A stretch of 64,000 bases of DNA from a virus. The position numbers and the translations under genes were made by a program. Location of the stretch: IMG/VR virus record IMGVR_UViG_3300029267_004179, positions 1 through 64,000 of that record; one strand, written 5' to 3'. The stretch's first letter is position 1. Each line of letters starts with the position of its first letter. The notes beneath the pieces are model-generated. The model had not been told where the DNA came from and made no database searches. It was given only the letters and a program-made list of their open reading frames with translations. Shown piece after piece: positions 9,693 through 63,468 of this stretch.

Positions 9693-10111
9693 TCCAGAAG
9701 AAGCAAAGGGAAAAGTCATGAAAAGGCAGTTTCAATTAATGTGCCGGTACAAAAAATACGAGTTCTGCCGTTATGTTGGGTGTTTGAAGTTAAGGGAATC
9801 TGTATGTATATTAAAAGATAGGAAGTGCATCTATACCGCAAAACAGCTTCATAAATTGCTTGAAGCCAAAGGGTTTGAAATTGTAAAGGAGGATAAATGA
9901 AACAATGTAGTCATGAAAATACTCATCCTGAAGAGTGGCCGGATGGAGGCATAGAAGTCTGTGATGATTGCGGGATGTCCCGGCACGTTTGGGAGTGGGG
10001 TGAATCAGGATGGATAATGGTTCATGATATCCCAAAATGTAGAAAAAAATTACAAGAATATATAGACTGTATAAAAGCAATGCACTTGAAGAAGATTAAA
10101 AAAGACCTGTG

Positions 10112-10338
10112 ATGATCATGCAAATTTTCAAGCCTATAAAAAAAAGATAACTCCTGATACAATGGAAATTGATGATCCTTTTTATGATCATTCTCACGGA
10201 ATGAGTATTGATACTGAAATCACCTTATGCTCAGTAGTTTGTGAGGAATGGAACTATACCTTCATGAGTCCACGAAAACGCATTACATGCCCACTCTGTT
10301 TAGATATAATTAGACATTGCAAAACATATAAACTATAA
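10112..10338 (+). pseudogene. Small Zn-binding protein gene frameshifted at an A8 run (10138-10145)
   Basis: ATG 10112 is coupled to the upstream stop; reading continues in the -1 frame to ...KRITCPLCLDIIRHCK. Confidence 0.55.
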
Positions 10339-10354
10339 ATATAAAGGAGTAGTT

Positions 10355-10627
10355 ATGAAACGGGATATGATAACCGATGAACAAATAGAGAGAGCAAAAG
10401 AACTAATAGTTGAGCGTCTTCATGCTGTAATTGAACAGAAAGGAAAAGACTCATTTGCTTCTGCTCAAGAATTACGTGGGGTCCTTAATACAGAAGTTGA
10501 TGAATTCAATAAGGAAGTAAGGGTTCATGGCAATTCACGTCGCCTTAAACATGAGTTATGTGATGTTGCCATTACCTGTATTTTTGGTATTGCTTGCATA
10601 AACGCTCAAAGGTCGAAGGGTAAATGA
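10355..10627 (+). CDS. MazG-like nucleotide pyrophosphohydrolase domain protein
   Basis: S.QE..GVL..EVDE...KHELCDVA helix motif. Confidence 0.6.
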   Translation: MKRDMITDEQIERAKELIVERLHAVIEQKGKDSFASAQELRGVLNTEVDEFNKEVRVHGNSRRLKHELCDVAITCIFGIACINAQRSKGK

Positions 10628-10827
10628 AGTTATTTTAAAGGAGGTACTATACCATATTCATGTGATCCGGCAGTCATGGACCTTTTTAAAAGACAGACCT
10701 TTGAAAGGTTATTGAGATTTGTCAAACCGTCATACATGGAAATATTGTTTGGTGGGACAAGATTTGAAGGCAAAATTATTCAATTTGAAAGATATCAAGA
10801 TATTGAATACAAAGAATATCGTAATAT

Positions 10828-11406
10828 GTGGGAGTAGTTTTGCTTAAATCGATTCACCATTATCCATTTGCTTATCCGTGTAGGGTTAAGGGATGTGCCA
10901 AAAAACGGTGTAATGGTAGGTGTTCTTTGCCTTCACACATAGAAAAGAATGGCAAATGTATATCTTTTACTTATGATAGGAGAAATGAATTGAAAACAAA
11001 TGTAGTGCATTTTCTTTTATATCAGAATCCTGAAGACTATGCTTGTGGTTCTTACGGAACCTTTCTTTCTGCTACAACAAATGAAAAACTTGTTACCTGT
11101 AAAACCTGCCTTGCTTTCCTAAAAAGAAGAGCAACCGGGAAAAAAAGGTATGTAGAAAGAATAAGGTCATCAAAAACAAAGATGGATTATTTCACTACTT
11201 CTAATATAATTGGAACAGAAGAAGTGAAATCAATGAGGGAGAACGGGTTTACTTTTCGGGAAATAGGGGATATACTTGGAGTGTCAAAACAAAGAGCATA
11301 TCAAATATTTTCAACTGATAAAAGTGTGCCAAAAAGGAACGCTGAAATATTTAAGGCGATATGGTGGAACGGGAAGAAGAAAATGATGCGTGTTAGAAAG
11401 GGGTAG
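10828..11406 (+). CDS. Cys-rich protein with C-terminal sigma70 region-4-like HTH
   Basis: GFTFREIGDILGVSKQRAYQI. Confidence 0.7.
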   Translation: MGVVLLKSIHHYPFAYPCRVKGCAKKRCNGRCSLPSHIEKNGKCISFTYDRRNELKTNVVHFLLYQNPEDYACGSYGTFLSATTNEKLVTCKTCLAFLKRRATGKKRYVERIRSSKTKMDYFTTSNIIGTEEVKSMRENGFTFREIGDILGVSKQRAYQIFSTDKSVPKRNAEIFKAIWWNGKKKMMRVRKG

Positions 11407-11469
11407 ATAAGGAAGTCTTTAATACCACCTAAACTTTTTAAATAATCGGGAAGAAAGAAGAGTTGCGAA

Positions 11470-13788
11470 TTGACACCTGACGATCTATTAAACTTGACTA
11501 ATACAGCACGGCTTCTTGAATGGCAATATGAACTTGATACCTATAATGATAAAGAACTACGCAAGATTCAAAGGGCAGTAAATAAAGCCCGGAATCAGGT
11601 TGTCAGCTATGTTCAAGAGCGTGGAGATAAGATAAAGGAATGGAGTGAAAGACGGTCTGAACAGATAATTGATGAGATGGATCGTTTAACTACCGGTCTT
11701 CAAACACAACTTGGTGAAAGCATATCCAAAATGGCGACAGCTACTGCTGTTGCATCTATCCCTGCCTATAATGATATCCTATCTTTTGGTGGAAAAGTGG
11801 TTGGCTTTAATAATGTAGCTTTATCTGCCGCACAACTCAAATCAATAGTGGAAAAAACTCCTGTAGGTGGCAGACTTCTTCGTAATTCATTGAAGGATGG
11901 CACTCAAGGGTGGATGCAAAGAACATTTACTGCGAAGATGCAGGGGGAACTTCGTGAGGATTTACTCGCTGGTCGCTTGAGAGGTTTTGGACCAAGGGAA
12001 CTTGCAAAGGCGATCAGGGAGAAGTTTGATAATCTTTCTAAAAAAGAAATTATTACTCTTGCAAGAAGTTATAACCATGCCGCATCTACTAAAGCAATGG
12101 ACCTTGTTTATCAGCAGAATCAAGATGTTGTAAAAAGAGTAAAATGGACTGCTACTCTTGAAACAGGATATAAGAAAAAGGGCCGGGGAACTTGTATAAG
12201 ATGTGCTGTCCTTGATGGAAGGACATTTGAGCTTAACGACCACCCTCCTTGCCCGTTACATCCAAGGTGTAGATGCGTTTTGACTCCTGTTACCAAATCA
12301 TACAAAGAGCTTGGTCTTGATGTAGAGGAAGTAAAAGAAGGGTCAAGACCGTATACGAAGAGGACAAGGTATGAAAACATTGATGTGGGTAGGAGAAAAA
12401 AGATATTATCTATAGGCCAACATGAAGGCAATTATGGGTCTTGGTTTTATAAGCAAGGGCCAAAATTCCAAAAGGATATGGTAGGTCCGAATAGAGCAAA
12501 ACTCATCCGAACCGGAGAAATAGATTTTGATGATTTAATCCGAATAGACCCAAGAACCAATGAAGTAGTTGTATTGCGTCTTGATGAGTTGACTGGAGAT
12601 AAAGATTGGAGAAAAAGAATTGATTTGACTTCTGGATTAAGGGCTGAAGCAATAGCAGCAGAAAAAAGACAGGGAAGACTGTCAGCTAAAGCAAGGGCAA
12701 AGCTGACTAAAAAGCAAGAAGCTGATTACAAGACCAATATGATCATGAACAAGGAGAAGTGGACCATTGTCGATCTTACAGAAGCTGAAATTGCTGATAA
12801 AATAGGTGCAGATTGGATCAAAGGCACTCGACCATTTGATTTGTTTCTTGACAATGAATTTATTGAAGTTAAGACGGTTATCAGGCATAATCCAAAATTA
12901 GGACTCAATCATAAATTGCAAGTAGAGCCTGATGCAAGAATAAGAAAAGAAAAGTTTGCTAAAAAATATGGGGTACGACCGCATATTGTATCGATAGTTA
13001 AAGATCCTGATTCACCTTTATACGGGAAGATATTTTATCGAAGTGAAATAGGTGCGTGGCGTCTTAAAAACATGGAAGAAATTGCGGATTATGACGCCTT
13101 AAAAGCAAGGATATTGAAAGGTAGACGCAAAAAAGCACCCAAAGAAGCAATTAAGAAAATGCCGTCTGTTGAAACTTTAAAACAAGCAGAAGATTGGGGC
13201 AGAAAGAATCTTGCAGATGTAGTTGATTATGATGAACTGTCTCCGGAAGTTGCTCATATGTTCAATGAATATGCTGCTGGTGCAATTAAAAAAATGAATG
13301 TGAAGATCAAGCAGATTGTCTTCGATGAGGATTTATTTGATGACTTGACTCTTGGGTTATCAAAGGAAAATGGCACGCTAATATTCAATCCAAAGTCTAT
13401 TAGGACTAAAGAAAAACTTGAAGATTTAATGGAGTCTCAGTTTAAAGCTAATCAATTTACCACTTCTTCTCCCGGCCATGTTTGGCGACATGAGATTGCC
13501 CACCAAAGATATTTTCAGTTGGGTGGCACAGAGGAGATGGCAAATGCTGCTATCCCTAAAAAAGTTTTTGAGCAAATGAAAGAAGATATTAGTAAATGGA
13601 AGGGATGGTACAAAAAATACATTTCCAACTATGCTACTATGAGTGAAGGTGAATTTTATGCTGAAATTTTAGCATGGGAAATGGATGGCAGGTTTATTCA
13701 TCCTGTAATAAAAAAGTATATGGTTTCTATCGAAAGGAAGTTAAAAAAAAATCTCATAAAGAGGGTAGCTGCCGAAAACACAAAATGA
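11470..13788 (+). CDS. MuF/SPP1 gp7 minor head protein with C-terminal PD-(D/E)xK nuclease-like and HExxH metallopeptidase-like domains
   Basis: MuF motif RGTCIRCAVLDG...PPCPLHPRCRC; PFDLFLDNEFIEVKT; HEIAH...ISNYA...EFYAE. Confidence 0.85.
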   Translation: MTPDDLLNLTNTARLLEWQYELDTYNDKELRKIQRAVNKARNQVVSYVQERGDKIKEWSERRSEQIIDEMDRLTTGLQTQLGESISKMATATAVASIPAYNDILSFGGKVVGFNNVALSAAQLKSIVEKTPVGGRLLRNSLKDGTQGWMQRTFTAKMQGELREDLLAGRLRGFGPRELAKAIREKFDNLSKKEIITLARSYNHAASTKAMDLVYQQNQDVVKRVKWTATLETGYKKKGRGTCIRCAVLDGRTFELNDHPPCPLHPRCRCVLTPVTKSYKELGLDVEEVKEGSRPYTKRTRYENIDVGRRKKILSIGQHEGNYGSWFYKQGPKFQKDMVGPNRAKLIRTGEIDFDDLIRIDPRTNEVVVLRLDELTGDKDWRKRIDLTSGLRAEAIAAEKRQGRLSAKARAKLTKKQEADYKTNMIMNKEKWTIVDLTEAEIADKIGADWIKGTRPFDLFLDNEFIEVKTVIRHNPKLGLNHKLQVEPDARIRKEKFAKKYGVRPHIVSIVKDPDSPLYGKIFYRSEIGAWRLKNMEEIADYDALKARILKGRRKKAPKEAIKKMPSVETLKQAEDWGRKNLADVVDYDELSPEVAHMFNEYAAGAIKKMNVKIKQIVFDEDLFDDLTLGLSKENGTLIFNPKSIRTKEKLEDLMESQFKANQFTTSSPGHVWRHEIAHQRYFQLGGTEEMANAAIPKKVFEQMKEDISKWKGWYKKYISNYATMSEGEFYAEILAWEMDGRFIHPVIKKYMVSIERKLKKNLIKRVAAENTK

Positions 13789-15577: not shown

Positions 15578-16714
15578 ATGCCGAACGTATTAACCGCAGT
15601 TATTCCCCAACTTTTGGCCCAAGGACTCCTGGCACTCAGAAGCAATTCTGTTATGCCAAGGCTTGTTAACAACTCTTATGACACGATGGCTGCAATGCAG
15701 GGTGCAACCATCAATGTGCCTATCCCCTCTTCCATCGCAGTTCAGGCGGTGAATCCGGCAAACGTACCGCCTGTGACGCCTGACGTCCAGCCAACCTCTG
15801 TTCCTATTCAGTTGAGCAAATGGTATGAAGCACCTTTTTATCTTACCGATAAAGACCTGAAGGAGTGTATGGATGGAACAATTCCGATGCAGGCAAGCGA
15901 AGCCATAAAGGCTGTAGCGAACCAGGTTGATGGAGACATCATGGCTTTGTACGCTGATGTCTATGGCTTTGCCGGCACTCCTGGTTCTACTCCTTTTGCT
16001 GCTGATGTTTCCGAAGCTACCGAAGCAAGAAAGGTGCTCAACAATCAGCTGGCACCTCTTGATGATCGTCGGATGGTTATTGATCCTGATGCAGAGGCAG
16101 AAGCACTTGGTCTGAGGGCATTTCAGGATATGTCTTTTTCCGGTAGTGCTCAAGGGATTGTCGATGGTGAAATTAACCGGAAGTTGGGATTTGACTGGTT
16201 TATGGATCAGCTTATTCCTTCCCATACAGTAGGTACTGCTGCTGGTGGTGGCTATACCACAGATGCTGCTGGTTATGCTGTTGGTGTGAAAACTGTAACC
16301 ACCATCGCAGGTGCTGGTACTTTTGAAATTGGGGATGTTTTCACAATTGCAGGTGACACTCAGACCTATGTTGTGACGGCTACTTTGGCTGCCCCTGGCG
16401 CCTTGAACTTTGAGCCTGGACTGAAAGTTGCTATTCCTGCTGTCGCAACTGCTATTACCCTGAAGGGTGTAGCAAGCACAGCATATCCGCAGAATTTGGT
16501 CTTTCACAGGGATTGCTTTGCTTTTGCTTCCAGACCTCTTGCTGATAACACCGACGGTCTTGGCAACATCATTCAGGCTGCAGTTGATCCGGTCTCAGGA
16601 GTTGCGCTCCGTCTTGAAGTGAGCCGTGAGCACAAGCAAACCAGATACAGCTATGACATTCTGTATGGCTGTTCTACTGTCCGTGCACCTCTTGGTGTCA
16701 GACTTTGGGGATAA
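15578..16714 (+). CDS. Major capsid protein, P22 coat (gp5)-like
   Basis: 378 aa; GATINVPIP, GDVFTIAG insertion, NLVFHRDCFAFASRPL, YDILYG; RBS AAGGAGG. Confidence 0.92.
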   Translation: MPNVLTAVIPQLLAQGLLALRSNSVMPRLVNNSYDTMAAMQGATINVPIPSSIAVQAVNPANVPPVTPDVQPTSVPIQLSKWYEAPFYLTDKDLKECMDGTIPMQASEAIKAVANQVDGDIMALYADVYGFAGTPGSTPFAADVSEATEARKVLNNQLAPLDDRRMVIDPDAEAEALGLRAFQDMSFSGSAQGIVDGEINRKLGFDWFMDQLIPSHTVGTAAGGGYTTDAAGYAVGVKTVTTIAGAGTFEIGDVFTIAGDTQTYVVTATLAAPGALNFEPGLKVAIPAVATAITLKGVASTAYPQNLVFHRDCFAFASRPLADNTDGLGNIIQAAVDPVSGVALRLEVSREHKQTRYSYDILYGCSTVRAPLGVRLWG

Positions 16715-18736: not shown

Positions 18737-18936
18737 TAGGCGAAAGTATGCTTGAAAGAGAACCAGAAGTAGGTGATGTTGTTGAAAACGGACTTGAAGA
18801 AAGATTCAAGGTTATTCGGAAGGATGATCATTTTTTAGGACTTATAAAACAAGGTGAATTCAATCTTGAGTATATTTCAAGTATTATGTGGAGGGATTTA
18901 CAAGGTGATTGGAACAAATCTTTGACGATTATTTAA
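18733..18936 (+). CDS. Small non-structural-type ORF
   Basis: ATGA overlap; charged composition. Confidence 0.55.
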   Translation: MIGESMLEREPEVGDVVENGLEERFKVIRKDDHFLGLIKQGEFNLEYISSIMWRDLQGDWNKSLTII

Positions 18937-18937
18937 G

Positions 18938-19014
18938 TTTTAAGGCCTATAAAATTTTTACCCTATATATAGGTATTAGTTTTTTATTTTATAGGTGTAG
19001 AATCTTAAATGAAA
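18938..19014 (-). repeat. Dispersed element, copy 2 (reverse orientation)
   Basis: Exact 77-bp reverse complement of 36497-36573. Confidence 0.97.
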
Positions 19015-19026
19015 GATGGTGATAAT

Positions 19027-22810: not shown

Positions 22811-24214
22811 ATGAGTAACGATCTTCCGAGAAGTAGTGTAGAGCTTGCCAATAAAGAGGTGTTTTGCAGCTTCTATACAAGAGATGAAAAGTATAGACCT
22901 GTAAACATGCGTGATTTAAGGCGCAGGGATTATTCTGTTGTCTGGTGTAAAACACTTCCGGTTAGATGGGATTATATTCGGGATAATAACGCAAGATGTT
23001 TCCCTTTTCCCAAAGGGCTGATTATTCCCGGCCAAGCGGATAAAAGATGTGATTTGCAGTTCTACAAGAATCAGCAAACTTTTGACATTCTTCCGCAATG
23101 GTCATTGCCGTCAGGGGTAGGTAATACCTATACTGTTTCCGGCACCTTTGGGACTTTTGGGGATTTAGCAAATAGAACCCGTTTTTTATCTACATCTATA
23201 GGCGCTCAATGGCCGACTGTCACAGATACTCCGAATGATTGGGTGGTTCATTTCCTTACCGGAGATATGGCTGGTAAGTCAAGGAAGCTGTGTTCTTATG
23301 ATCAAGTTACAGGGGAAGTCAACGTGGTTCACTCCACTTCTGGTAAGGCACCTTTTCCCGGATGGGGAAACAGGGGGATACAAATTGGGGATACTTTCAA
23401 AATCAGAAAAAGAAGTGGTGGTAATACTACTCCTGTAAACTGCTGCAACTGGGAATTGACTTCTAAGGTTTTTAAATCCCCTAATTCGAACAGTGCCTTG
23501 AGTTTGTACAAATCAGTCCGATTTAAATATGTTGCGGCATCTGTTGACCCAAATGTAATTGGTGATTTTGCACCTGCCGGGTATCCCATCTTTGATTCCG
23601 ATACTTTAACTATGGCATGGAGGGAAATTCATTATCACTGGCAGCCTTGGATTCAGAAGATCATGCCGTCTGATATATTTCCTTCTGCCGCAATCAATAC
23701 TCATGGCCGGTGGCCTATACAAAATGGCGCAACAACTATCGATAGTGTTACAAGGGTTTTACTTGGTACTTATCAAGTTCCTGGTACTTCTACCAATGTT
23801 CCAATTTATGTTTTTGATATTTCATATAATGGTGGTGCTTTTACAAAAAGATACGAGCTACCCACCTTATATACGATAGGAAATATGCCCCGTGGTTATC
23901 GGGTTGAGATGTGGGTGTCAACCCGAAGGAATATGTATATGCCAAGAGTAAGGTGGGGTAGAGGTCATAATCTTTCCTTTGCTGATTATTACTATCAGCT
24001 GATAGGAAATTATGTCTATGTCGATCATCGGTGGTGGGGAGGGCTGTCGGTAGATAACCAAGGCAGAAATCATATTCAATTCAATAGCCCTGTATGGTTA
24101 CGGGCAAGAAACCAGAAGACAGGAGGGGTCACGGACTTTAGCAGACAGCATATTATAGCAAAGTTTAGAGCGCACAAAGCAAGACTTTGGAACTACCCAA
24201 TGATCCAAATATAG
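22811..24214 (+). CDS. 467-aa protein with a virion-type beta-barrel insert and an Arg/Trp/Tyr-rich C-terminus; directly upstream of the hairpin array
   Basis: RBS AAGGAG; WVVHFLTG..AG.SR....YD...G...V...F...IQIGDTFKI motif. Confidence 0.8.
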   Translation: MSNDLPRSSVELANKEVFCSFYTRDEKYRPVNMRDLRRRDYSVVWCKTLPVRWDYIRDNNARCFPFPKGLIIPGQADKRCDLQFYKNQQTFDILPQWSLPSGVGNTYTVSGTFGTFGDLANRTRFLSTSIGAQWPTVTDTPNDWVVHFLTGDMAGKSRKLCSYDQVTGEVNVVHSTSGKAPFPGWGNRGIQIGDTFKIRKRSGGNTTPVNCCNWELTSKVFKSPNSNSALSLYKSVRFKYVAASVDPNVIGDFAPAGYPIFDSDTLTMAWREIHYHWQPWIQKIMPSDIFPSAAINTHGRWPIQNGATTIDSVTRVLLGTYQVPGTSTNVPIYVFDISYNGGAFTKRYELPTLYTIGNMPRGYRVEMWVSTRRNMYMPRVRWGRGHNLSFADYYYQLIGNYVYVDHRWWGGLSVDNQGRNHIQFNSPVWLRARNQKTGGVTDFSRQHIIAKFRAHKARLWNYPMIQI

Positions 24215-24231
24215 GAAAGATGATGTTAGAA

Positions 24232-24518
24232 AAGTTCAAGAATGTATTGGGGGCGGGTGTAGGAATTTACGGTAACTCTGTGGTGGTGAGGGCGGTCAAC
24301 ATCGAATGGAGCTATCCTCAAGATTCAGTTCAACTATCCTGGGGATATTCTGTAATAGCGAGAGTGGTCAACAACGCCGGGGAACCTGTGGTAGATGTAG
24401 TTCAACTACACACCCCAAACCCACTAATGTCGTGAGTGGTTAACATCATGCGGAAACAACCGGAAGATCTTGTGCAACAACTCGACGTTTGACCCGCCCC
24501 CAATAGATTCTTGAACTT
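24232..24518. repeat. Inverted-repeat-enclosed 72-bp-periodic dual-motif array; probable structured ncRNA
   Basis: 27-bp IR (26/27) at 24232-58 and 24492-518; (C/T)AAC motifs spaced 34/38/34/38/34. Confidence 0.85.
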
Positions 24519-24536
24519 AAACGGTAGGAGAAGGAA

Positions 24537-27500
24537 ATGGGACTTTTAGATAAACGAACAGTAATTTGTTTAGACTTTCATGATGCATTGGTAGCATTGC
24601 CTGTCGGTCCTACTTCCGGTGATGCTTATATCTGTTCTGTCGCTGGTAATGGTTGGACTTTGAATTACTTCTACTGGTATGACGGTGCCGCTTGGATAGA
24701 AGAAATACCTGCTTTTGGACAGGTTGCTTCCTTGTCTACTCCTGTTGAAATCAGGTGGTTTGATGGGACCGGATGGGTGTCGATGGGAGCTGCCGGTGGT
24801 TACTGGTCAAGAGATATAGGTAACGGGATCATCTACCCTACCACATTGACTGATCGGGTTACTATAGGCCACCAATTGCCTCCTATATCTGCCGGTATGC
24901 GGTTAAGTATTGGGGATGGGATTCAAACTACCTGTAATGGTGGTAATTCGGTGATGCTTTCTTATGATGGTGAGGACTGTTATTATGAGACACGATCTAC
25001 CGATATGTCAGAAGGAGTTATTTTTAATGCTGATGGGGCAGTCCCAAATAGGTCCGGTATTCTTTCTAATATCTTTTCTGGCGGGTATCCTTTAGGATGG
25101 GGAAATAATAGACTTTTCATTTTCGATTCAAGAACAAATCCGATTACTGTAAGATGTAACAGCTATAATATGATTGAGATGAGAATGCCGGTTGCTGCCG
25201 GTGTTCCCGGTTTTCTTTTGAGAAGTGGTCCGGTCATATCTACCGCTTTATTTTATATGACAAATGAAGATCAAGCGAACATCGAAATGGGTGCAAGTAA
25301 TGCTATCAATTGGCTTGATGGTGATGCAGAAGGGGATGGAGTTGACTTTTCAATCTTTATGGATGGTAATGACGCCATAGGAATTAATGGATCAACAAGG
25401 GCAATTACTTTTAATGCCGTCTATTCTTTCCCTACTTCTGATGGTTTAGCTTCTCAGGTCTTAACCACAAATGGTTTAGGTGTGGTGTCTTGGCAAAATG
25501 CCGGTGGAACCGGTTACTGGTCAAGAACATTAACAGTCATTCATCCTACCACTATCACTGATAATGTATCTATAGGCAATACTACTGGTAATGGGTACCA
25601 ATTTTTTGTATCAACAGAGATTGGGCTTGTGGATACGATTATTTTGAATCAATCAGGAAATTTTGTCCAATTTGGGGATATGGATGGTGGTGGTCACGAT
25701 ATAGCCTTCAAAGGGGATAATGCCTATATTGACTTCTACCCTATTGGCTCAGACCGTGTAATGAGGTTAAGCGGTAGTGAAGGGCTTCAATTATGGTCCG
25801 TCAATGCTGCCAATCCTTCTACTGTTGCTTCTTTGCATTTAAGACATACACGGGGAAATTATGTTGGTGGTCCTGATTATACTCAAAACAATGATGTTTT
25901 AGGAACCATCGACTTCTGTGGTCATAACAATGCAAACAATGTCGGCGCTTTTATTCAGTCAGAAGCAACTACTAATTGGACCTTGCTTCCACTTCCTAAT
26001 TGTCCTGCTGATATGTCATTTTGGACTACTCCTGATGACAATACCCAAATACCGCTTGAAAGACTGACTCTTCACGATGATGGGACTATTACTTTCAATA
26101 CTGCCTATACTTTCCCGAATGCTGATGGTGCAGCCGGTAGGGTATTGCAAACAAATGGTTTAGGAGTTCTATCGTGGGCTGTTGCTGGTGGGGCAGGGTA
26201 TTGGAGTCAAACGGGTACGGTAGTTCATCCGACAACCATCACTGATCAAGTAGCAATTCAACAAACAACTGCTTATGGAGCTACCCCAAGACCGTTGACG
26301 ATAGGAGGGGCCGGTGCCTATGGCGGTACGGCTCATTTGACAGGTGCTTCCCCACGGCTTGAACTATATGCTTCTGGCCTTACTGCCACTTATCGAGCTT
26401 ATGATATTGTGCCTTATGGTGATGCCTTACATATCAGAAATCTTGATGATGCCTATGCCGTTGGGGTAGATTTATTCGAAGGAAACCGGGATGGGGTAAA
26501 CCTGTTTGGAACCGGTGCTGCTGCGATAGTTCAAATTGCGACGGCAGGGGTCATTTTTCATAATGCCTATACTTTTCCTAATGCTGATGGTACTGCTGAT
26601 ACTGTTTTAATGACGGATGGAGCAGGAGATGTCGAATGGGTGAATCCCGGAACCTTTGCTGTTAATCAGGCAGCTCATGGCTTTACTGCTGCAACACCTA
26701 TATACTGGACCGGTGCGGCATGGGCTGCGGCTCAATCTGATGATCCTGATACGGTAGGAACTCATGTTGTGGTAGAAGTTGTCGATGCCGCAAATTTCCG
26801 AGCAGCAAATAATGGCAGGCATACAATAACCGGTCATGGCTTAACTGTTGGGGAATATTATTTTGTTTCAGACGCTGTAGCAGGCACTTTAACAGACACA
26901 GAGCCCACAACCTATAGTAACCCCTTAGTTTTTATCGAAGATGCTAATACAGCCCACATCCTGCCGTTTAGAGCAAGCCAATATCAACCAGCCACACAAG
27001 ATGGCTGGACTTTATTTTCTGGTACATTTACCTATATTTCAGCTACCAGCTTTTCAGTTTCAAATACTGCTGCTAATCAGGCTATTTTTAAAGTTGGTAG
27101 ACCTATTACATATCGAATTTCACCGGGAACATGGGATTATGGCATAGTGACAGCATATGTTGCCGGGACAATTACTCTGGCAGGTGCTTCTATGGCTGCG
27201 GGTGATGATGAGATGAAATGGGGTGATCTTGGAAAAGTTCAACATCTATCCTTTGCTGTTAATGGGGAGTTTGCTGATGCTGCCGAAAGTGACTTACTTG
27301 AAAATGATTTGAACTACTTTTTTAAATGGAAAGGTGGCTTGTCATATTGCGTTTTAATAAGTCATATTCTAACGGTAGACGATAGTGGTGTTGGCGGTCC
27401 TGCTACTGACAATCCTTTTGCCAATGTGACTATTGGAAGCAAAAGTGGAGTAATGTCTGATGTTTGTTCTTCAAATGGTGGTGATGGGTTAAGAGTAAGA

Positions 27501-27656
27501 ACTACTTGGCAGGAAACAACAAATGATATCAATGTGGCAAATTATCAAATTGATTTCGGTGATGATATAGAAATTAAAGCAACCCCGGCAGGTAGTGCTG
27601 GTGAGAATCTGGATGCTGCAAATCTAACCTTACAAGCAATTTTCGTATATGAATAA
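24537..27656 (+). CDS. Long fibre protein (1039 aa)
   Basis: Repeats FN.AYTFP.ADG....VL.TNG.G..SW..AGG.GYWS; QAAHGF; HGLTVGEYYFVS. Confidence 0.85.
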   Translation: MGLLDKRTVICLDFHDALVALPVGPTSGDAYICSVAGNGWTLNYFYWYDGAAWIEEIPAFGQVASLSTPVEIRWFDGTGWVSMGAAGGYWSRDIGNGIIYPTTLTDRVTIGHQLPPISAGMRLSIGDGIQTTCNGGNSVMLSYDGEDCYYETRSTDMSEGVIFNADGAVPNRSGILSNIFSGGYPLGWGNNRLFIFDSRTNPITVRCNSYNMIEMRMPVAAGVPGFLLRSGPVISTALFYMTNEDQANIEMGASNAINWLDGDAEGDGVDFSIFMDGNDAIGINGSTRAITFNAVYSFPTSDGLASQVLTTNGLGVVSWQNAGGTGYWSRTLTVIHPTTITDNVSIGNTTGNGYQFFVSTEIGLVDTIILNQSGNFVQFGDMDGGGHDIAFKGDNAYIDFYPIGSDRVMRLSGSEGLQLWSVNAANPSTVASLHLRHTRGNYVGGPDYTQNNDVLGTIDFCGHNNANNVGAFIQSEATTNWTLLPLPNCPADMSFWTTPDDNTQIPLERLTLHDDGTITFNTAYTFPNADGAAGRVLQTNGLGVLSWAVAGGAGYWSQTGTVVHPTTITDQVAIQQTTAYGATPRPLTIGGAGAYGGTAHLTGASPRLELYASGLTATYRAYDIVPYGDALHIRNLDDAYAVGVDLFEGNRDGVNLFGTGAAAIVQIATAGVIFHNAYTFPNADGTADTVLMTDGAGDVEWVNPGTFAVNQAAHGFTAATPIYWTGAAWAAAQSDDPDTVGTHVVVEVVDAANFRAANNGRHTITGHGLTVGEYYFVSDAVAGTLTDTEPTTYSNPLVFIEDANTAHILPFRASQYQPATQDGWTLFSGTFTYISATSFSVSNTAANQAIFKVGRPITYRISPGTWDYGIVTAYVAGTITLAGASMAAGDDEMKWGDLGKVQHLSFAVNGEFADAAESDLLENDLNYFFKWKGGLSYCVLISHILTVDDSGVGGPATDNPFANVTIGSKSGVMSDVCSSNGGDGLRVRTTWQETTNDINVANYQIDFGDDIEIKATPAGSAGENLDAANLTLQAIFVYE

Positions 27657-35884: not shown

Positions 35885-36490
35885 ATGGCCGACTATACAA
35901 GACAAGTTCAAGGTGCCTATGATCTGATCAAAAGAAAGGGTCTCTTGATAGCTGTGAGAAGATATACAGCTTCAACTGGTGGTACTTATAATCCGATCAT
36001 AGATGAGAAGGTAATTTATGAGGCTGAACTTAACGGGGCCGTAGGGATTGGTGATCTTGCTTTAACAATTCAAAATCAAACCGGTGTCTTCCCTGCTACC
36101 GGTGGGGAAATACAAATAGATAATGAGCAGATTAGCTATACAGCTGCTGCTGGAAATGTCTTGGCCGGATTGACAAGAGGAATTAATGGGACTTCTCCTG
36201 CTGCTCATTTAGACTTAGCAAAGGTTTATCTAATTCAAGCAAGGGATATTTATTCTGATTATTCTACATATGCTGTTTTAACAAATTATGAAGACAGGCA
36301 TATAGATGGTACTTTAATTCAGGAAGGGGATTTAAAGGCTTTGATTTCTCCTTTCAATTTGGCTGTTGTTATCAAGGTGACTGATAAGTTGGTTGTGGAT
36401 GGGATTGTATGGAATATTGTCCGTGTTCCAAAAGTAGCACCGGCAGGAATGTCTCAAGTTGTGTTATATAAACTTCAGATTAGATCATAG
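35885..36490 (+). CDS. Head closure/stopper protein with inserted domain
   Basis: GTYNP; IDGTLIQEGDLK; VAPAG...LYKLQIR. Confidence 0.75.
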   Translation: MADYTRQVQGAYDLIKRKGLLIAVRRYTASTGGTYNPIIDEKVIYEAELNGAVGIGDLALTIQNQTGVFPATGGEIQIDNEQISYTAAAGNVLAGLTRGINGTSPAAHLDLAKVYLIQARDIYSDYSTYAVLTNYEDRHIDGTLIQEGDLKALISPFNLAVVIKVTDKLVVDGIVWNIVRVPKVAPAGMSQVVLYKLQIRS

Positions 36491-36496
36491 AGTTTG

Positions 36497-36573
36497 TTTC
36501 ATTTAAGATTCTACACCTATAAAATAAAAAACTAATACCTATATATAGGGTAAAAATTTTATAGGCCTTAAAA
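36497..36573 (+). repeat. Dispersed element, copy 3
   Basis: TTTCATTTAAGATTCTA...AAACTAATA...TATAGGGTAAAAATTTTATAGGCCTTAAAA. Confidence 0.97.
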
Positions 36574-36585
36574 GGGGAATAAGAA

Positions 36586-37077
36586 GTGATTGACCCAAAG
36601 TTAAAAGGTAGAATTACAAGAAATGCAAATCGGTTTTCAAGAAACCTTGAATTGATGGCTTCCTTTGCAGAAAACAATGTGGAGCAAATCATCAGGAAGT
36701 CAGTTATTGATTTATTCGGAAAACTTGTAGAAAGAACACCTGTCGATACCGGTCATGCAAGAGCAAATTGGAATATTGACACCAAATTTGATCCTTCTTT
36801 GGTTACAAGAGTAGTTGCGTCAGATGTAAGAAAGTCAAGAAAAGCAGGAGCGGCAGGTAAATCAAACGAAGTAAAGTCAATTACAGCACAAAAGGCAAGA
36901 GAATTTGAATACAATATCGTGGATCAGGTTATAGTTATTTATAACAATGTCCCTTATATTGAAGCGTTGGAAAACGGCCATAGTAAACAAGCAGCGCAGG
37001 GATTTATAGCAATGACAGTAAAGGAGTTTTCAGATCAGTTTTCAGCGAATGCAAGGCAACTTGCAGGGGAAATATAA
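36586..37077 (+). CDS. HK97 gp10-like tail completion protein
   Basis: TPVDTGHARANW; IYNNVPYI..LE.GHSKQA..G. Confidence 0.88.
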   Translation: MIDPKLKGRITRNANRFSRNLELMASFAENNVEQIIRKSVIDLFGKLVERTPVDTGHARANWNIDTKFDPSLVTRVVASDVRKSRKAGAAGKSNEVKSITAQKAREFEYNIVDQVIVIYNNVPYIEALENGHSKQAAQGFIAMTVKEFSDQFSANARQLAGEI

Positions 37078-46546: not shown

Positions 46547-46566
46547 TCTTAAAATTAACCGTGTTA

Positions 46567-46639
46567 ATTTAGCTTATATTAAACGATCTGATAAAAACTA
46601 ATATAAGGGTATAGGGTAAAAATTTTATAGGGGTTAAAA
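46567..46639 (+). repeat. Dispersed element, copy 4
   Basis: ATTTAG...AAACTAATATAAGGGTATAGGGTAAAAATTTTATAGGGGTTAAAA. Confidence 0.93.
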
Positions 46640-46644
46640 AGGAA

Positions 46645-47916
46645 ATGCTTTTAATTGAAGTCACCATAAACGGAACAGTAAATTATCTTTCGATGGAAGG
46701 TATTGAATTGACGAGATGGTGGGATAACAAAGTGATTTCATTTACTGCTCCTAATTACACCATTAAGGATACTTATGGTGGTTATGTAGATGTTGAATTC
46801 GGAAACATAGAATTTTCACCCGATCTTTTTCTTTCTCCTAATTGGCCTCCTCCTGCTGAATGCCCTATAGTTGTGAAATATACAGATACCGACGAAGCAA
46901 GTGCAGAGGTTCTTTTTGATGGTACCTGCTATATCAGGAAAATAAACAGGGAATCAATAGTATATGACATCTTCGATGAAGCGTTTGATATAAATCTTTT
47001 GGATACTGCTGTTGATTACAATGGGGATACCGTACCGTTACCAAGAGCTTTTGGGACTGTTACTTTTGTCAATCCGGTAAGACTACCGGATGCCGGTGGT
47101 TTCCCGATATGGCATAAAGGGAATATTCAAGGAGTACTTGGAACTAATTATTTCTGTTATGATGACGGAATAGATGTTTCAGTTAATTTCACCGATCTTG
47201 GCACTACCCTACAACAAAACGTAGGGCTTGCCGGGGAACTTACATTATCAGGAGTTGGCCTTGAAACGACTCTTGACCAAGTTATGAGTTGGGGAGCTAT
47301 AACTAAACTTGGTCTTGCCTATGATAATTCCGTTGGCAGGGTAGTGAGTCCACCAATTAATTATTGGGCGGCAGGGCAGGATAAAATAATATCTTTTTTA
47401 TCAGATATATGCTTGTTTTTCACTCATCTTAATTATATCAGGAATAACACTCTTTATCTTGTAGATATGTTTCAAGATAATGGAACAAGAACTATTACTG
47501 AGTTTGAGTTCTTTCCTGCCGAGTATGATTATGAAGTCCCGATAAGGATAATAAAATCCGCATGGGAGAATCGCTTTTCTGTTTCTGAAACGATAGGGCA
47601 ATATGTTAAGCATGTTCCTGATAAAACAGAAAGGACAACTGCTTTTCCGTATGGCAATTTAATGGAAGTAACACCATTCGATGATATCAAGTCAAATATA
47701 GAAGCTGCACTTGACAATATATTACTTGTTCATCCAAAACCACGAGCAAGAGTTTCATTGCCTCTTTTGGGTAGTTTGCCTGTTCCCGGTGAAGCGATAA
47801 CTCTTGAAGATACTTCACTTGCTGAAGATACAGATGTAGTTATAAGGTGCAGAAAAATTACTTACGATTTTAATAATGATGAAGTTGTAGTAGAAGGTGA
47901 AGGGACACTGACATAA
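46645..47916 (+). CDS. Tail tip/hub protein
   Basis: Follows TMP; PLPRAFG.V..VNP...YDDG motif. Confidence 0.7.
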   Translation: MLLIEVTINGTVNYLSMEGIELTRWWDNKVISFTAPNYTIKDTYGGYVDVEFGNIEFSPDLFLSPNWPPPAECPIVVKYTDTDEASAEVLFDGTCYIRKINRESIVYDIFDEAFDINLLDTAVDYNGDTVPLPRAFGTVTFVNPVRLPDAGGFPIWHKGNIQGVLGTNYFCYDDGIDVSVNFTDLGTTLQQNVGLAGELTLSGVGLETTLDQVMSWGAITKLGLAYDNSVGRVVSPPINYWAAGQDKIISFLSDICLFFTHLNYIRNNTLYLVDMFQDNGTRTITEFEFFPAEYDYEVPIRIIKSAWENRFSVSETIGQYVKHVPDKTERTTAFPYGNLMEVTPFDDIKSNIEAALDNILLVHPKPRARVSLPLLGSLPVPGEAITLEDTSLAEDTDVVIRCRKITYDFNNDEVVVEGEGTLT

Positions 47917-55334: not shown

Positions 55335-55348
55335 AAAGAATCATCATC

Positions 55349-55421
55349 ATTTAAGATTCTATCAGCATAAAATAAAAAACTAATATAAGGGTATAGGGTA
55401 AAAATTTTATAGGCCTTAAAA
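55349..55421 (+). repeat. Dispersed element, copy 5
   Basis: ATTTAAGATTCTA...ATAAAATAAAAAACTAATATAAGGGTATAGGGTAAAAATTTTATAGGCCTTAAAA. Confidence 0.96.
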
Positions 55422-55438
55422 AGGAAATAAGGAAGCCG

Positions 55439-63076: not shown

Positions 63077-63396
63077 AATGCTTCCTTTCTTTGTATCTGT
63101 TATAGTTAATTGGCTAATAAAACAACAAATCAGTCATCACCTCCTTTTACGCCTTATTCTTTTCAAACTACTTGTCCTTTTCTTTTTACTGCTTGGTGGC
63201 ATACTCCTTATTTCTCCACAGTCATAAGCATAATTTGCCCATAGCCTACACTTTGTGCATTTTTTAAGCTTTGGGTGATTCACATCTCCCGGCTTTCTTT
63301 TCGACATCTCTATACAAACTTTTAAGTTAACATGAATTTGCCTTCTTTTGCAATAAAAGTAATTATCCATAATCTGTTAAGACTTTCTTATTTCCC

Positions 63397-63468
63397 TTTT
63401 AAGGCCTATAAAATTTTTACCCTATACCCTACTATTAGTTTCAAAAGATCACATACCCTGTGTTAAAT
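63397..63468 (-). repeat. Dispersed element, copy 6
   Basis: Reverse complement reads ATTTAA...GATCTTTTGAAACTAATAGTAGGGTATAGGGTAAAAATTTTATAGGCCTTAAAA. Confidence 0.93.

Follow-up and report, generated by a model that had tools for sequence, protein, structure and literature searches.

The 287-bp element at positions 24232-24518 of the phage record IMGVR_UViG_3300029267_004179 is a real and unusual singleton that belongs to no known array family. From its sequence we tentatively read the element as a non-coding structural module located inside a late polycistronic transcript whose genes lie on the same strand. This is the most economical reading because a near-perfect 27-bp pairing stands beside decayed repeats, the codons of the open reading frame (ORF) that runs through those repeats are used in a random-like manner and the repeats share a hairpin. 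The record analysed is 104,019 bp long with a CheckV rating of complete, and the window, the whole stretch of DNA given here, is its first 64 kb. All genes near the element are on the + strand, are tightly spaced and mostly have strong Shine-Dalgarno sequences. The element occupies the 322-nt gap that separates a gene encoding a 467-aa protein from a gene encoding a 1039-aa protein, and lies within a block of unannotated and Laminin-G-type structural genes (Pfam, PHROG) between the major head and head-closure genes. The features are:

15578-16714, major head protein gene
22811-24214, + strand, upstream gene, 467 aa, no Pfam or PHROG family
24031-24092, + strand, possible fourth copy of unit 1, isolated, in the 3' end of the upstream gene
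24220-24435, + strand, small ORF of 71 aa, or 70 aa if the second ATG (24223) is the start, weak AGGA Shine-Dalgarno
24232-24258, + strand, left arm of the 27-nt inverted repeat, within codons 5-13 of the small ORF
24277-24348, + strand, unit 1, with motif A GGTCAAC at 24294 and motif B GTTCAAC at 24328
24349-24420, + strand, unit 2, with motif A GGTCAAC at 24366 and motif B GTTCAAC at 24400
24421-24491, + strand, unit 3, with motif A GGTTAAC at 24438 and motif B GTGCAAC at 24472
24492-24518, + strand, right arm of the 27-nt inverted repeat, its first base being the last base of the second in-frame TGA (24490-24492), which it abuts
24537-27656, + strand, downstream gene, 1039 aa, acidic, strong Shine-Dalgarno
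35885-36490, head-closure protein gene

The 467-aa protein is basic (pI 9.7, 7.7% arginine, 3.6% tryptophan) and its AF2 model (pLDDT 31) was too poor for a fold search. Its sole known relative is P0002 (43% identity, same C-terminus), encoded by a Logan contig of 4,342 bp. Over its final ~330 aa the 1039-aa protein shows 40% identity with the C-terminal end of a 795-aa protein (10001-12388 of the locus compared) of IMGVR_UViG_3300018080_000113, an otherwise unrelated 140-kb phage. This sequence similarity suggests a shared fibre or receptor-binding module, and the gene beside the element is probably a fibre gene. The two loci are not syntenic, because the ORF upstream in the 140-kb phage (481 aa) is unrelated and the C-terminal module is the only part in common. 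Within the 1039-aa gene there is also a 37-nt direct repeat, 89% identical, at 26093-26129 and 26556-26591.

The original prediction was of a hairpin-enclosed array of two alternating motifs, and its outer boundary proved accurate: the 27-nt inverted repeat lies at 24232-24258 and 24492-24518 with 26/27 positions matched and the arms 233 nt apart. As RNA the stem consists of 12 bp, one G-G mismatch and 14 bp and has a duplex energy of -46.8 kcal/mol. A census of the complete 104,019-bp genome turned up no second long-range inverted repeat as good as this one, and in shuffled genomes (n=3) the longest arms were 19-21 nt at most with more mismatches. The outer stem was present in all folds of the region and both neighbouring start sites stayed unpaired. 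The right arm ends 9 nt upstream of the Shine-Dalgarno of the 1039-aa gene. Excision of 24232-24518 would leave a 35-nt spacer, an ordinary size, from the stop at 24214 to the ATG at 24537, and hence the element looks like a discrete module of the intergenic spacer. As the arms match at 26/27 positions while the adjoining repeats fall to ~55% identity, the stem pairing seems to have been maintained or to be recent. The stem is long enough for an RNase III substrate (a continuous duplex of ~20 bp or more), with transcription through it read from the orientation of the genes. No promoter-like site was found on either strand at 24215-24536, nor is there a U-tract 3' of the stem. Genome-wide, the only other strong local palindromes are beyond the window: at 73196-73249 a 14-nt loop sits on a perfect hairpin stem of 20 bp, and at 100729-100814 a 30-nt loop sits on a 28-nt stem matched at 24/28 positions. 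The 9-mer ATGATGTTA at the start of the small ORF (24220-24228, + strand) recurs inverted in unit 3 (24442-24450, - strand), probably by chance.

The coordinates predicted for motifs A and B and their 34/38-nt spacing were all correct, as was the 72-nt periodicity: alignment of the sequence to itself at an offset of 72 gave 133 nt of 60% identity (E 1.6e-6). The three units are mutually 49-58% identical with longest common blocks of ~8-16 nt, and TRF called no array at the element. The positions of the alternating motifs thus stood, but the accompanying contrast between conserved motifs and variable spacers was only marginal (25 invariant columns; clustering permutation p 0.05-0.08). Hence, a picture of conserved repeats and variable spacers is not clearly distinct from that of an evenly decayed triplication. 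A covariance model of the unit found no further copies elsewhere in the 104 kb. The top genome-wide match to unit 1 is the isolated copy at 24031-24092 (37/62 positions, versus a background maximum of 32), which is read in a different frame and lacks the hairpin.

These properties bear on the possibility that the element is a functionless relic, in which a tandem triplication, whose source might be the 3' end of the upstream gene, has decayed and illegitimate recombination at a mosaic joint has recently left an inverted duplication as well. The unit-1-like copy in another frame of the upstream gene, the decay of the units with their marginal motif clustering and the singleton status of an element for which relatives were not found would all be consistent with such a history. 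We consider it very improbable. Arms matched at 26/27 beside repeats of ~55% identity call for selection or for an event that happened very recently, neutral decay would not be expected to produce the compensatory changes between the unit stems described below, and phage genomes tend to shed useless DNA.

The 72-nt units are in register with the small ORF and thus can be read as 24-aa repeats. The ORF begins with ATG ATG (24220/24223) 5 nt past the stop codon of the upstream gene and lies in the frame of 24187. The frame remains open for 82 codons, which has a chance of ~1% among stop-free shuffles, and unit 3 has a TGA (24433-24435) where unit 1 reads AGG and unit 2 reads AGA. In public gene calls the ORF has 70 or 82 aa, although these calls come from near-identical contigs only; such contigs in the protein collection all yield the same small ORF. 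It could be argued that the element is a small orphan protein gene of 70-71 aa, or of 89 aa before the AGA-to-TGA change in unit 3, which encodes 24-aa beta-hairpin repeats, was possibly acquired horizontally and has its translation tuned by the inverted repeat that encloses it. The register of the units, an ancestral 89-codon frame ending exactly at the right arm and the acceptance of the ORF by gene callers speak for a protein, as does the 5-nt gap between the upstream stop and the ATG, which permits translational coupling. In addition, this frame is the best of the six, the amino-acid composition is typical for genes of this phage, and a 3-periodic Markov model gave +5.9 bits, a low but positive value at the 6th percentile of real windows. 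AF2 predicted beta hairpins for the read-through ORF, albeit with a pLDDT of just 51, too poor for a fold search.

The coding tests disagree in part but on balance point away from translation, and they make a protein gene doubtful. The total codon score of the small ORF was 0.08 versus 22+/-8.8 for real-gene windows, and so resembles stop-free shuffles (-3.3+/-6.4) and spurious ORFs. When only synonymous choices were scored the ORF gave -12.8 versus 6.1+/-4.5 for real-gene windows, none of which (0/265) scored as low, and the stop-free shuffles gave -8.95+/-4.7. Expressed per codon, the synonymous score was -0.18 versus -0.05 to +0.19 in seven small neighbouring genes, and GC3 was 0.49 in the small ORF versus 0.34. 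Mismatches between units fell on codon positions 1, 2 and 3 in the ratio 39/31/31, and thus have no 3-base periodicity and no third-position excess, the opposite of what protein-level selection gives. Moreover, unit 3 resembles unit 2 at least as well past the stop codon as ahead of it, and the differences between units in the hairpin stems preserve pairing rather than protein sequence. A HMMER search of 1.84 billion protein representatives returned only repetitive eukaryotic FN3 and F5/8-C proteins plus one ORF of 12-aa repeats, and these were rejected as homologues because their scores were sums of ~27-bit stretches; hence no credible homologue exists among these representatives. There was also nothing in Pfam or the PDB sequences, and no usable match in the ESM Atlas.

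Given the random-like synonymous use, the differences between units that lack 3-base periodicity and the hairpin changes on both sides of the stem, the proposal that the element acts as non-coding RNA fared somewhat better than the coding alternative, whereas its more specific guide or template role found no support. The same non-coding reading is weakened by the 82-codon open frame, by the ATG with its weak Shine-Dalgarno and by the positive Markov score. A tandem repeat having a period that is a multiple of three can yield a convincing, probably spurious ORF that gene callers accept. Two other translational schemes were discarded. A programmed -1 frameshift joining the ORF to the upstream gene would lack a slippery heptamer in 24187-24214, and the stem lies beyond the stop. 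Recoding of TGA was ruled out because TGA ends 12/51 genes in the window. TGA is the stop codon of 1 of the ~29 genes of the structural block 19303-52625 versus 11 of the 22 genes elsewhere in the window, a scarcity that may reflect how strongly expressed late genes choose their codons. As tightly packed genes elsewhere do end in TGA, it is no sign of recoding.

We turn to RNA folding within the arms. The G-C-closed pentaloops that had been assigned to each motif have stems of only 1-2 bp and carry no statistical weight, whereas the long stem at 24306-24353 was recovered in both the minimum-energy and centroid folds. The 233-nt interior is not more stable than its dinucleotide shuffles (z of +0.79 and +0.60 on the two strands), and it is the outer stem that gives the element as a whole its z of -4 to -5. 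When the three units were folded together with RNAalifold (register 24277), the consensus contained a small helix near motif A and, around motif B, a hairpin of 8 + 4 pairs with a palindromic core. The cores of this hairpin are AGT-TCA-ACT in unit 1, GTAGT-TCA-ACTAC in unit 2 and TTGT-GCA-ACAA in unit 3, and hence the stem sequences differ from unit to unit. In the consensus 83% of the cells were paired, versus 69+/-4% in shuffles, and 8 pairs were changed on both sides; 0/500 shuffles reached these values, and pairing fell to 28-53% when the register was slid. Since the three sequences tested had also supplied the structure, two further nulls were run. Against column-shuffled alignments, energy had p 0.026 and compensatory pairs p 0.002, and only 0.13% of ~1,500 triplets of consecutive 72-nt windows from elsewhere in the genome folded equally well. 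In the outer part of the stem the 5' side is pyrimidine-rich in unit 1 and purine-rich in unit 2, a swap not expected under neutral decay.

Taken singly, only the unit 1 hairpin (24308-24351, -13.6 kcal/mol, z -2.3) is clearly stable. The unit 2 hairpin is ordinary (-12.1 kcal/mol, z -0.8), whereas that of unit 3 is degenerate and weaker than its shuffles (-4.3 kcal/mol, z +1.2). This weak third hairpin and an interior of unexceptional stability count against the non-coding reading. The G-U pairs fail to identify the strand of the unit hairpins. A scan of 23800-24900 against Rfam gave no match at E<=10, and ARAGORN found no tRNA or tmRNA in the window. The units were therefore rejected as tRNA-like.

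The shared hairpin could also be the business end of an RNA acting in trans, in which processing of the stem (by RNase III) would free a ~250-nt RNA whose three hairpins serve as a multivalent scaffold or decoy for an RNA-binding protein. The partner might be the basic upstream protein or a host RNA-binding factor, with a role in virion assembly or host takeover. Apart from the guide role, this is what the original prediction proposed. The conserved loop and core with covarying stems, an outer stem like those that flank the rRNAs (textbook knowledge) and the pI of 9.7 of the upstream protein argue for this scheme. We nonetheless judge it quite unlikely, because there are just three units of which the third is degenerate, the interior is not unusually stable, no Rfam family matches, the genome has no second locus and none of the neighbouring proteins has an RNA-binding domain (Pfam, PHROG). 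If true, such a cassette would be a kind of phage non-coding RNA for which no family has been described.

We return to the structural module of the late mRNA, for which a mechanism can be proposed. Duplexes become substrates of RNase III from a length of about two helical turns. Upon transcription the arms would pair to give a 27-bp duplex with one mismatch that loops out 233 nt, in which three hairpins around AGU-UCA-ACU could form, one per decayed 72-nt unit. The host RNase III would then target the duplex, and cleavage of the stem would split the mRNA of the 467-aa protein from that of the 1039-aa protein. The structured ends left by cleavage would set the relative stability or translation of the two mRNAs, and a ~250-nt hairpin-repeat RNA would be freed. 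Transcription through the element, its cleavage by RNase III and an effect on the flanking genes are what we infer from the arrangement. For comparison, RNase III binds or cuts Correia elements that are transcribed together with their neighbours (PMC2649163). Should the stem prove to be a processing or insulating signal, this phage would offer a clear example of a long-range duplex that uncouples two structural cistrons and excises the intervening RNA, and the element would be a handy model for the origin of such modules in tightly packed late operons.

The inverted repeat can also be viewed as acting in DNA rather than RNA. The element might be an inverton whose 233-bp segment is flipped by a recombinase of the host. 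It might instead be a MITE-like insertion in which the 27-bp arms are the terminal repeats, or a binding-site array in which a protein binds TAGTT-C-AACTA palindromes spaced at 72 bp. Arm length and segment size are typical of invertons, of which putative viral examples have been reported (PMC13501310, PMC10028968). As an insertion the element would be clean, splitting a spacer of 35 nt and perhaps bounded by a duplicated AA. Its composition is unlike that of the genes of the phage, and motif B has an 11-bp palindrome at its core. These DNA-level schemes are unlikely, given that six-frame searches of the complete 104-kb phage genome gave no match to serine, tyrosine, large-serine or IS110-type recombinases (PF00239, PF00589, PF07508, PF01548) and no ParA or ParB. 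Moreover, an internal promoter-like site is absent from both strands, the flipped orientation offers only a featureless 42-aa ORF, and a 2-bp AA duplication is weak evidence. The element is present as one copy in the phage genome, and scans of IMG/VR, JGI metagenomes, GTDB genomes, INPHARED and PLSDB gave no other copy.

Those scans were of several kinds. Exact-pattern scans with the arm or with the A-B-A motif geometry gave zero matches in IMG/VR, JGI metagenomes and GTDB genomes. Scans of the same three collections by back translation, and also with the P0001/P0002 alignment, gave no relatives of the flanking proteins, and blastn and tblastn searches of INPHARED phages together with PLSDB plasmids found neither relatives nor copies. 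The case carries limited weight, as the element stands alone in a lineage from which hardly any other phage has been sequenced. A Correia-like MITE was specifically discounted on its one genomic copy, the zero arm matches in the collections searched and the presence of only a 2-bp AA at the ends. The element was likewise set aside as a partition centromere, as the phage has no ParA or ParB, and as an attC-like site, because the outer heptamers lack the canonical G and C.

The genome does contain an intergenic repeat family of nine copies, 55-90 bp long with a conserved core of AAAACTAATA ... TATAGGGTAAAAATTTTATAGGCCTTAAAA, to which the element does not belong, the sequences being unrelated. 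Five copies are in the window (18929-19016, - strand; 36490-36586, 46564-46646 and 55347-55435, + strand; 63383-63441, - strand) and four beyond it (68763; 76229, - strand; 88156; 103918, - strand). The core lies 10-25 nt upstream of the Shine-Dalgarno and start of the next gene, and by sequence the family looks like a phage-specific promoter of T7-like TAATAC..TATAGGG flavour. An RNA polymerase of family PF00940 was not found, in a search whose control was uninformative. The copies at 18938-19014 and 36497-36573 are exact reverse complements (77/77), whereas the others differ at several positions, and this pair flanks the 17.5-kb fibre/lectin block that holds the element. Direct tandem repeats occur beyond the window at 86568-86766 (~100 bp, 98% identical) and 76033-76123 (~42 bp, 100% identical).

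The original prediction had compared the element with guide arrays and retrons and had found no partner gene in the window. As regards reverse transcriptase and Nop/Tas, that absence extends to the whole genome: reverse transcriptase (PF00078) is missing, and the Nop domain (PF01798) gave no match at E<=0.1 genome-wide with controls detected in four archaea. For Cas families, it was borne out by Pfam and PHROG in the nine proteins scanned around the element. The TnpB/Cas12f-type domain and a phage-encoded RNase III are also absent genome-wide. With no such enzymes or recombinases, only three decayed units and a mismatched geometry, a guide-array, template or retron-like role is unsupported; the unmatched TIGR geometry, the missing partner domains and the lack of Rfam or tRNA matches leave guide-array, retron and DGR readings in the same position.

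Each family was weighed on its own characters. A CRISPR array is made of direct repeats, 24-48 nt long and nearly identical, between which lie unique spacers of about the same length. The units here are only 49-58% identical and TRF called no array, and the repeat structure is not that of a CRISPR array. Rfam gave no match. A retron, in which a reverse transcriptase gene adjoins an ncRNA with a1/a2 inverted repeats, was rejected because the phage has no reverse transcriptase, the terminal inverted repeat being the only resemblance. A DGR template was rejected for the same lack of the enzyme and because the differences between units are not limited to adenines. TIGR arrays have 36-nt units with 8-12-nt spacers and lie beside a Nop-domain Tas gene (PMC12045711). 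The element, with a 72-nt period, motifs 34/38 nt apart, 16-20 variable nt, three units and no Nop domain, is not such an array.

The closest known systems each share some of these properties. TIGR-Tas loci resemble the element in having two alternating conserved elements with short variable stretches, and both occur in phages; in the stem-loop type of TIGR the segments are variable yet consistently palindromic (PMC12045711). They differ in that TIGR arrays, which have box C/D motifs, usually run to 5-15 units, versus three units and a 72-nt period here. Invertons provide the likeness of a 27-bp inverted repeat around a segment of ~230 bp beside a probable fibre gene, but this phage lacks a recombinase gene, an internal promoter-like site and a meaningful alternative ORF. 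REP/BIME sequences are tandem imperfect palindromes, regularly spaced within operons and transcribed as hairpins that affect mRNA stability. However, BIME palindromes alternate in orientation, share sequence and number in the hundreds per genome together with a RAYT transposase, whereas the three units of the element have the same orientation and differ in their stems. Correia elements and other bacterial MITEs are ~100-300 bp long and intergenic with ~26-bp terminal inverted repeats, and are co-transcribed with their neighbours to give a hairpin RNA that is bound or cut by RNase III (PMC2649163, PMC10969869). Those elements are multicopy with a defined target duplication, whereas this one is single copy and has an internal 72-nt triplication.

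The RNase III processing sites, both the T7 intercistronic sites and the long-range stems around 16S and 23S rRNA, resemble the element in placing a long near-perfect duplex between cistrons in a polycistronic transcript. In this phage cleavage is a prediction from sequence, and the enzyme would have to come from the host, since the phage encodes none. The T7 sites are local hairpins of ~50-60 nt with an internal loop, unlike the 27-bp stem that closes 233 nt in this phage. In the rRNA case the stem surrounds a cargo RNA that cleavage releases, as proposed here.
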